A stretch of 64,000 nt of DNA, from the NCBI RefSeq assembly GCF_000026545.1, contig NC_011601.1. One strand, 5' to 3'. The position numbers are program-made. Each line of letters begins with the position of its first letter. The first letter of the stretch is position 1. The DNA comes from Escherichia coli O127:H6 str. E2348/69. Its GTDB lineage: Bacteria > Pseudomonadota > Gammaproteobacteria > Enterobacterales > Enterobacteriaceae. Of the stretch, positions 46,701 through 49,700 are shown one piece after another.

Positions 46701-49700
46701 TCGGCCATATCTTCGGCTTCAGACTCGCTGAGCGCGTAACTGTTTGCGCAAACGGCCATCAGGCTGCCGAATAACACTGTTCTGAAAAACGTCTTCATTG
46801 CTTCTACCAGGGGCTTAAAGAAGATAAACGTTAGCACACTGCGAGCGAGGCGACGACCATTATTGTCGATTAAATTGTGTCTGCGACTTGACCTTCCCGT
46901 AAGGGGAAGGACTATGCTCAACGTTTGATTTTGTTTCGCCTGCTTAAGAATAAGGAAATAACTATGCAACGTCGTGATTTCTTGAAATATTCCGTCGCGC
47001 TGGGTGTGGCTTCAGCCTTGCCGCTGTGGAGCCGCGCAGTATTTGCGGCGGAGCGTCCAACGTTACCAATCCCTGATTTGCTCACGACCGATGCCCGTAA
47101 TCGCATTCAGTTAACTATTGGCGCAGGTCAGTCCACCTTTGGCGGGAAAACCGCAACTACCTGGGGCTATAACGGCAATCTGCTGGGGCCGGCGGTGAAA
47201 TTACAGCGCGGCAAAGCGGTAACGGTTGATATCTACAACCAACTGACGGAAGAGACGACGTTGCACTGGCACGGGCTGGAAGTACCGGGTGAAGTGGACG
47301 GCGGCCCGCAGGGAATTATTCCGTCAGGTGGCAAGCGCTCGGTGACGTTGAACGTTGATCAACCTGCCGCTACCTGCTGGTTCCATCCACATCAACATGG
47401 CAAGACCGGGCGACAGGTGGCGATGGGGCTGGCTGGTTTGGTGGTGATTGAAGATGACGAGATCCTGAAATTAATGCTGCCAAAACAGTGGGGTATTGAT
47501 GATGTCCCGGTGATTGTTCAGGATAAAAAATTTAACGCTGACGGGCAGATTGATTATCAACTGGATGTGATGACCGCCGCTGTGGGTTGGTTTGGCGATA
47601 CGTTGCTGACCAACGGTGCAATCTACCCGCAACACGCTGCCCCGCGTGGCTGGCTGCGCCTGCGTTTGCTCAATGGCTGTAATGCCCGCTCGCTCAATTT
47701 CGCCACCAGCGACAATCGCCCGCTTTATGTGATTGCCAGCGACGGCGGTCTGCTACCTGAACCGGTGAAGGTGAACGAGCTGCCAGTGCTGATGGGCGAG
47801 CGTTTTGAAGTGCTGGTGGAGGTTAACGACAACAAACCCTTTGACCTGGTGACGCTGCCGGTCAGCCAGATGGGGATGGCGATTGCGCCGTTTGACAAGC
47901 CGCATCCGGTAATGCGGATTCAGCCGATTGCCATTAGTGCCTCTGGTGCTTTGCCAGACACATTAAGTAGCCAGCCTGCGTTACCTTCGCTGGAAGGGCT
48001 GACGGTACGCAAGCTGCAACTTTCTATGGACCCAATGCTCGATATGATGGGGATGCAGATGCTGATGGAGAAATATGGCGATCAGGCGATGGCCGGGATG
48101 GATCACAGCCAGATGATGGGCCATATGGGGCACGGCAATATGAATCATATGAACCACAGCGGGAAGTTTGATTTCCACCATGCCAACAAAATCAACGGTC
48201 AGGCGTTTGATATGAATAAGCCGATGTTTGCGGCGGCGAAAGGGCAGTACGAACGTTGGGTTATCTCTGGCGTGGGCGACATGATGCTGCATCCGTTCCA
48301 TATCCACGGTACGCAGTTCCGTATCTTGTCAGAAAATGGCAAACCGCCAGCGACGCATCGCGCAGGCTGGAAAGATACCGTTAAGGTAGAAGGTAATGTC
48401 AGCGAAGTGCTGGTGAAGTTTAATCACGATGCACCGAAAGAACATGCTTATATGGCGCACTGCCATCTGCTGGAGCATGAAGATACGGGGATGATGTTAG
48501 GGTTTACGGTATAAAAAGACCGTATTCGGAAATATGCCCGGATCTCTCCGGGCATTATGGTTACTTCACATCATCCGGCAGCGCATAAGCCACAATATAG
48601 TCGCCCATCTTCGTACCAAATGAACCGTGACCGCCTGCGGAGATCACCACATACTGCTTGCCATTCACTTCATAGGTCATTGGCGTAGCCTGACCACCCG
48701 CTGGTAAACGACCCTGCCACAGTTTTTCACCGTTGCTCATGTTGTAAGCGCGCAGGTAGTTATCTGCCGTAGCGGCGATAAACAGCACGTTACCCGCCGT
48801 GGAGATTGGCCCGCCAAGCATCGGCATACCCATATTGAACGGCACCGGTACAGGCATCGGGAATGGCATACTGTCCTGTGGCGTACCAATACGTTTCTTC
48901 CACACCACTTCATTGGTTTTCAGATCCAATGCTGAGATATAGCCCCATGCTGGCTGTTTACATGGCAGACCAAACGGTGAGAGGAACGGGTTGAGCGTGA
49001 CACCATACGGTACACCGTACTGCGGCTGGATGCCGGATTCCGTACCCGTGCCTTTGGCATCTTTCGGCTGTTCCATCGGGTTGCCTGGACCGCGTGGGAT
49101 CAGTTTCGAAACAAACGGCAGTGCCATTGGGTTGGCAATCGCCACTTCACGATTCGGATCAACGGAAATCCCGCCCCATTCGAACATCCCCAGGTTACCC
49201 GGGAAGACCAGCGTACCCTGTTCAGATGGCGGGGTGAAAATGCCTTCATAGCGCATCTGGTGGAACATCACGCGGCACACCAACTGGTCAAACATGGTGG
49301 CTCCCCACATATCCGCACCGCTCAAATCTTTCGTCGGACGGAAGCTCAGTTCAGAAAACGGTTGAGTAGGGGTAACGTAATCACCTTTCGCTGCGCCTTG
49401 CGGCACCGGTTTTTCCGGTGCCGGAACCACCAGTTCGCCATTACGACGATCGAGCACAAAAATGTTGCCGGTTTTCGCCGGAGCATAAATGACCGGCACT
49501 TTCTGACCATTAACGGTGATGTCCGCCAGCGTCGGCTGTGCCGGAAGATCCATATCCCACAGGTCGTGGTGAACGGTCTGGTAGCTCCACGCCAGTTTCC
49601 CGGTAGTGGCATTCAGCGCCAGAATCGAGCTGGCATAACGTTCCTGTTCCGGTGTGCGGTTACCACCCCAAATATCTGGCGTGGTGACGCCCATCGGCAG

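Follow-up and report, generated by a model that had tools for sequence, protein, structure and literature searches.

The closest described systems are the two CueR-controlled promoters of Escherichia coli K-12. Apo-CueR represses, and holo-CueR activates, copA and cueO through DNA distortion (PMC5329002, PMC9909328), and ChIP-chip in K-12 found CueR peaks at only two chromosomal sites, one upstream of copA and one upstream of cueO (10.1101/2020.08.17.251918). The core box to which CueR binds, CCTTCC-N7-GGAAGG, is attributed to Yamamoto and Ishihama 2005 (PMC8169799). Heavy-metal MerR-family promoters as a class have spacers of 19 or 20 bp (PMC1526738), and the 19-bp spacer defines the CueR promoters (PMC8169799, PMC1526738). 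In the cryo-EM structures, which were obtained on the copA promoter (PcopA), a CueR dimer bends this spacer and thereby realigns the -35 and -10 sequences, CueR and RNA polymerase being on opposite faces of the DNA; a 1-bp shift of the CueR box matters (PMC8169799). In CueR activation complexes the dyad centre is located at about -24, where the kink is sharpest (PMC9909328).

The cueO promoter (PcueO) is thus already known: it is a textbook CueR promoter, characterised since 2000-2001. In K-12, a PcueO-lux fusion responds to copper (bioRxiv 10.1101/2020.08.17.251918), a PcueO-lacZ fusion serves as a read-out of CueR (PMC9396075), and published work includes a deletion of PcueO, taken as an established CueR operator. 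Comparative genomics had listed the yacC-yacK (cueO) divergon as containing a candidate CueR site whose promoter has a 19-nt spacer, and had noted a CueR cassette at cueO of Salmonella (PMC1526738). A recent iScience systems paper holds nothing on the architecture of PcueO.

Here we describe the corresponding promoter of E. coli O127:H6 strain E2348/69, found in a 64-kb stretch of its chromosome (64,000 nucleotides, hereafter the window). We conclude, with a probability of about 0.96, that positions 46888-46918 are PcueO, the sigma-70 promoter of cueO controlled by CueR, a Cu(I) sensor of the MerR family; the residual doubt comes from the experiments having been done in K-12, the core of which is identical here. 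CueR occupancy, copper induction and the distortion mechanism are taken from the K-12 literature, the structures being those of PcopA and not of PcueO, while this work itself covers the sequence and its register, how rarely it would arise by chance, how far it is conserved, and whether the species carries cueR.

Results

Layout of the cueO promoter

Direct reading of region 46500-47300, which contains gcgacTTGACCTTCCCGTAAGGGGAAGGACTATGCTcaacg, gave the features collected in Table 1. The initial annotation had proposed a TTGACC-N19-TATGCT promoter holding a palindrome inside its spacer, and the two hexamers were found exactly where it had placed them, 19 bp apart rather than at the optimal 17. 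As for the palindrome, an inverted-repeat search returned a 7-5-7 repeat, CCTTCCC (46892-46898), gtaag and GGGAAGG (46904-46910), whose arms are 100% complementary. The arms and their coordinates therefore stand, but the repeat does not lie wholly inside the spacer: the first two bases of its left arm, CC (46892-46893), are also the last two of TTGACC.

Table 1. Features of the yacC-cueO region of E2348/69. Positions are those of the window.
Feature	Position	Strand	Basis
yacC, PulS/OutS pilotin-like lipoprotein, divergent neighbour of cueO	46451-46798	-	ORF, RefSeq annotation, Pfam
-35 hexamer TTGACC of PcueO	46888-46893	+	Direct sequence reading
CueR operator, dyad CCTTCC-N7-GGAAGG	46892-46910	n/a	Centre 46901; inverted-repeat search, box scan
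Spacer, 19 bp, 2 bp over the sigma-70 optimum	46894-46912	+	Direct sequence reading
-10 hexamer TATGCT of PcueO	46913-46918	+	Direct sequence reading
Predicted cueO transcription start	46923-46927, ~46925	+	Inferred: -10 end + 7 nt; dyad centre at -24
Shine-Dalgarno AAGGA of cueO	46952-46956	+	Conserved columns in orthologue alignment; leader ~39 nt
cueO, multicopper oxidase, gene downstream of the promoter	46964-48514	+	ORF, RefSeq annotation, Pfam

The operator is an exact copy of the CueR core box as published (PMC8169799). The K-12 PcopA sequence reads TTGACCTTCCCCTTGCTGGAAGGTTTAACCT, and both promoters follow the same register, TTGA-CCTTCC-N7-GGAAGG-N2 and then the -10 sequence, with the operator reaching into the -35 hexamer at its 3' end. 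The proposal of a classic CueR architecture upstream of cueO is thus borne out by an exact core box, by the identity of the 31-bp core with that of K-12 PcueO and by the register shared with PcopA.

Since the start is expected 7 nt past the end of the -10 hexamer, and since the dyad centre would correspond to -24, cueO transcription is predicted to begin near 46925. The cueO ATG is located 45 nt past the end of the -10 hexamer. The resulting leader showed no significant fold (z = +0.87) and no Rfam match. The palindrome AACGTT occurs twice around the promoter region, at 46920-46925 over the predicted cueO start and at 46827-46832 in a conserved block close to yacC; of the two copies, only the latter is conserved among orthologues.

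Rarity of the promoter in the window

The exact string TTGACC-N19-TATGCT occurs once in the window, as does the exact core box CCTTCC-N7-GGAAGG, which was absent from all of 100 dinucleotide-preserving shuffles. When two mismatches were allowed in the box, the number of matches in the window was at chance level. We then defined a composite pattern, TTGACN-N19-TANNNT with a perfect inverted repeat of 6 bp or more inside it. The window has one such site, whereas 300 windows simulated under a Markov-1 model had 0.01 on average, with any occurrence in only 3 of them.

The initial annotation had suggested a scan with a CueR position weight matrix as a check. With a matrix built from the non-Escherichia cueO orthologue sites and copA, the CueR box scored 30.2 of a possible 31.4 bits and the next unrelated match in the 64 kb reached 7.0; because the training set consists mainly of orthologues of this same promoter, the score measures its conservation and not an independent motif. 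A sigma-70 scan with spacers of 16-18 bp returned no promoter in 46300-47200, as is to be expected where the spacer exceeds this range. Scanners limited in this way miss MerR-type promoters; these can be recognised from raw sequence.

Conservation across the Enterobacteriaceae

Among 5,426 complete E. coli genomes, 5,419 match the 66 bp surrounding the site with an identity of 97% or higher. As within-species identity says little on constraint, we compared orthologous loci across genera, namely 80 cueO loci drawn from the Enterobacteriaceae (about 25 genera), in which CueO identity is 74-97%. The pattern TTGAC(C/G)-N19-TA(A/T/G)GCT was kept in 79 of the 80 loci, and in all 79 promoters the spacer was exactly 19 bp. 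When the promoters were reduced to 46 distinct sequences, the TTGAC of the -35 hexamer was invariant (the sixth base being C in 45 of them), and so was the T-A-n-G-C-T pattern of the -10 hexamer. Within the box, positions C5, T8, C10, G18, A20, G22 and G23, numbered with the initial T of the -35 hexamer as 1, did not vary in any of the 46, whereas the central bases vary freely. The same picture emerged when 78 distinct upstream regions were aligned, the -35 hexamer, both arms and the -10 hexamer standing out from weakly conserved flanks. Both the operator and the spacer length are constrained, and this pattern fits a dimeric protein that would read the outer bases of each half-site within a strict spacer-length geometry. 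The phylogenetic footprint separates the constrained bases (-35, outer arms, -10 and spacer length) from a free centre, in agreement with the published structural model.

The perfect dyad of E2348/69 is a minority form, present in Escherichia and in some Citrobacter, Klebsiella and Raoultella. In 32 of the 46 distinct promoters the right arm reads GGAGGG instead of GGAAGG, the difference lying at promoter position 21 (window position 46908). To judge from this arm, the affinity of CueR for cueO relative to copA may differ between the two forms. We also considered whether symmetric co-variation of the arms (positions 9/19 and 7/21) could reflect a co-evolving dimer recognition; this was unconvincing, most of the symmetric cases being the canonical pair.

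One orthologous locus stood apart. That of Intestinirhabdus alba is the sole complete cueO locus to lack yacC upstream. The place of yacC is taken by a gene for a methyl-accepting chemotaxis protein, and neither a CueR box nor a promoter with a 19-bp spacer was found anywhere in 6.5 kb; cueO may be differently regulated in this species.

Two further observations were made among the E. coli genomes. At a threshold of at least 99%, the 66-bp stretch is matched by only 143 of about 5,419 genomes. Of 5,442 matches of the yacC-cueO stretch 46700-47100, 10 fell on plasmid-labelled records (3 with the 66-bp query), which could be mislabelled chromosomal fragments or genuine plasmid copies.

Gene context and cognate regulator

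The initial annotation had placed the promoter in a divergent yacC-cueO region, and the RefSeq annotation of E2348/69, to which the sequence is 100% identical over 401 bp, confirms it. The minus strand carries speD, speE and yacC, and also gcd after cueO (ORF list and RefSeq annotation). The gene directly downstream of the promoter is the copper-homeostasis gene cueO, whose product contains three Pfam multicopper-oxidase domains (Cu-oxidase_3, Cu-oxidase and Cu-oxidase_2) and a TAT_signal match slightly under the Pfam cutoff (21.1 vs 22.7 bits). The predicted CueO is a Tat-exported, three-domain periplasmic multicopper oxidase.

The cognate regulator is encoded outside the window, cueR being located at 513,993-514,400 in K-12; at the level of the species, 5,424 genomes out of 5,426 complete ones of E. 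coli carry it. The identity of cueR (L084:1494-1901) in the complete E. coli genomes is strikingly bimodal, with 3,205 records reaching at least 99%, 626 lying at 95-99% and 1,593 at 90-95%. A core gene seldom diverges to this degree, and the distribution suggests two allelic lineages or recombination at the locus.

Elsewhere in the window, four families gave Rfam matches at the gathering score, PssrA, STnc40, naRNA4 and tp2, the matches occupying 15341-15430 (+), 21076-21145 (+), 21549-21624 (+) and 32900-33013 (-). The PssrA match (105 bits) is chromosomal here, although its family was first reported on a plasmid of Shigella; naRNA4 is a REP-derived nucleoid-associated RNA. No tRNA gene was found in the 64-kb window.

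The yacC side of the region

A second strongly conserved block, AAACGTTAGCACACT (46826-46840; also 46859-46866), was seen in about 25 genera; it lies upstream of yacC, some 28-42 nt from the start of the gene. Read on the minus strand, the block at 46826-46840 contains TGcTAACGT, which fits an extended -10 sequence (TGnTAnnnT). It could be the core promoter of yacC, or the site of an unknown factor. The sigma-70 scan with 16-18 bp spacers gave no consensus promoter for yacC.

It had been suggested that yacC may share the region. On such a reading a single CueR site would act on both genes, the region would be bidirectional, and yacC would be regulated by copper. The arrangement itself speaks for such a sharing, yacC being divergent from cueO in 78 of the 80 loci with only about 140-200 bp between the genes, and the locus has been treated as a "yacC-yacK divergon" (PMC1526738). 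In addition, the Intestinirhabdus locus, the one without yacC, is also without the CueR box; this coincidence shows the whole intergenic region moving together, and does not show co-regulation of yacC. To our knowledge, MerR-type activation takes place only at promoters whose own spacer holds the operator. On the minus strand, however, no -35 and -10 hexamers flank the CueR box, and a whole-promoter matrix scored 5.8 there but 42.5 on the plus strand. Between the box and the closest conserved block on the yacC side (46826-46840) there are 50-65 bp, and in the literature searched no link of yacC to copper or CueR was found beyond the mention of the divergon in the 2006 comparative-genomics work (PMC1526738). 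We thus found no support for shared control, and consider it distinctly unlikely that this CueR site governs yacC as well as cueO.

Other explanations for the palindrome

An over-long spacer holding a dyad is common to all MerR-family promoters, and the palindrome might as such be the operator of another MerR paralogue (ZntR, SoxR or a GolS-like protein) and not of CueR. The arms, however, are the exact CueR core box and are identical to those of PcopA, the spacer has the 19 bp of CueR promoters, the downstream gene encodes a copper oxidase, and CueR gives a ChIP-chip peak at cueO in K-12 (10.1101/2020.08.17.251918), all of which makes another paralogue very improbable. That the repeat would act in RNA, as a hairpin, an intrinsic terminator or a leader element, is more improbable still. 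A G+C-rich stem of 7 bp is possible on both strands, with minimum free energies of -14.2 and -12.9 kcal/mol, but the fold z-scores are just -1.3 and -1.7, no T-run follows the stem on either strand, the terminator scan was blank at the site, and the repeat matched nothing in Rfam at E values of up to 1. A terminator or structured RNA at the PcueO repeat was rejected on these grounds (T-run, z-scores and Rfam). The repeat is moreover upstream of the predicted start, and would thus be absent from the cueO mRNA. In the orthologues, positions 9/19 and 7/21 are often non-complementary while single bases reportedly recognised by CueR are invariant; this loss of complementarity alongside invariant CueR-read bases is the pattern of protein recognition and not of base-pair covariation.

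A chance palindrome in an ordinary constitutive promoter is the least credible of these explanations. The loose pattern TTGACN-N19-TANNNT is indeed not rare, with 2 occurrences in the window where about 1.3 are expected, but the exact box appeared in none of the 100 shuffles and the composite pattern is expected 0.01 times. The spacer length and the arm bases are invariant over about 25 genera, and CueR binding has been shown experimentally in K-12 (10.1101/2020.08.17.251918). Conservation together with the ChIP data already refutes it.

Discussion

The elements reported above point to a CueR-controlled cueO promoter at 46888-46918, and no result spoke against it. According to the initial annotation, a missing CueR footprint or copper response at this promoter would count against such a reading; the published K-12 data report a ChIP-chip peak of CueR and a PcueO-lux fusion that responds to copper (10.1101/2020.08.17.251918), so that neither is missing there. 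We infer from the identical 31-bp core that the K-12 behaviour carries over to E2348/69.

On this basis, the promoter would work as follows. The hexamers, 19 bp apart and not 17, would be too distant for RNA polymerase and wrongly phased for it, so that transcription would be weak at the basal level. A CueR dimer would occupy the dyad on the DNA face opposite the polymerase, and apo-CueR would keep the DNA in an inactive shape. Once loaded with Cu(I), Ag(I) or Au(I), CueR would kink and under-twist the spacer at the dyad centre. This distortion would shorten and re-phase the spacing that separates the -35 from the -10 sequence, leading to an open complex and to transcription of cueO from about 46925.

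With the perfect dyad of Escherichia, as against the GGAGGG arm of most other genera, CueR occupancy and the copper threshold of cueO could have been retuned relative to copA in a lineage-specific way, and/or CueR could modulate a yacC promoter placed back to back with that of cueO; we hold these proposals, drawn from sequence patterns, to be unlikely. If CueR did act on yacC, this would tie the sensing of cytoplasmic Cu(I) to an envelope lipoprotein.

The nearest relative of the promoter described here is the K-12 PcueO (formerly of yacK), which has the same locus, the same yacC/cueO pair and an identical 31-bp core. The host differs, E2348/69 being an EPEC-like O127:H6 strain, and from 46860 to the ATG the two sequences are identical except at 46886 (A here, G in K-12). 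This position is two bases upstream of the -35 hexamer and is not conserved among orthologues, so that the change is probably neutral. The cueO promoters of Salmonella, Citrobacter, Enterobacter, Klebsiella, Kosakonia and further Enterobacteriaceae have the same -35 hexamer, 19-bp spacer, TAnGCT -10 sequence and divergent yacC; in most of these the right arm is the imperfect GGAGGG, and the leader from the -10 hexamer to the ATG is about 10 nt shorter (34 nt vs 45 nt here).

PcopA, the archetypal CueR promoter of the crystal and cryo-EM structures, shares with PcueO the -35 hexamer TTGACC, the 19-bp spacer, the arms CCTTCC/GGAAGG separated by N7 and the 2-bp gap before the -10 sequence. The two promoters differ in the -10 sequence itself (TAACCT in PcopA, TATGCT in PcueO), in the central 7 bp (CCTTGCT vs CGTAAGG) and in the pair flanking the arms, A/T in PcopA, which extends its dyad (ACCTTCC...GGAAGGT), and A/A in PcueO. 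PcopA drives a P-type ATPase, whereas PcueO drives an oxidase. More distantly, the merT promoter with MerR (Tn21/Tn501) and the zntA promoter with ZntR belong to the same mechanism class, in which a dyad operator is placed in an over-long spacer and acts through DNA distortion, but their operator sequences and metals differ from those of PcueO, which belongs to the CueR regulon.
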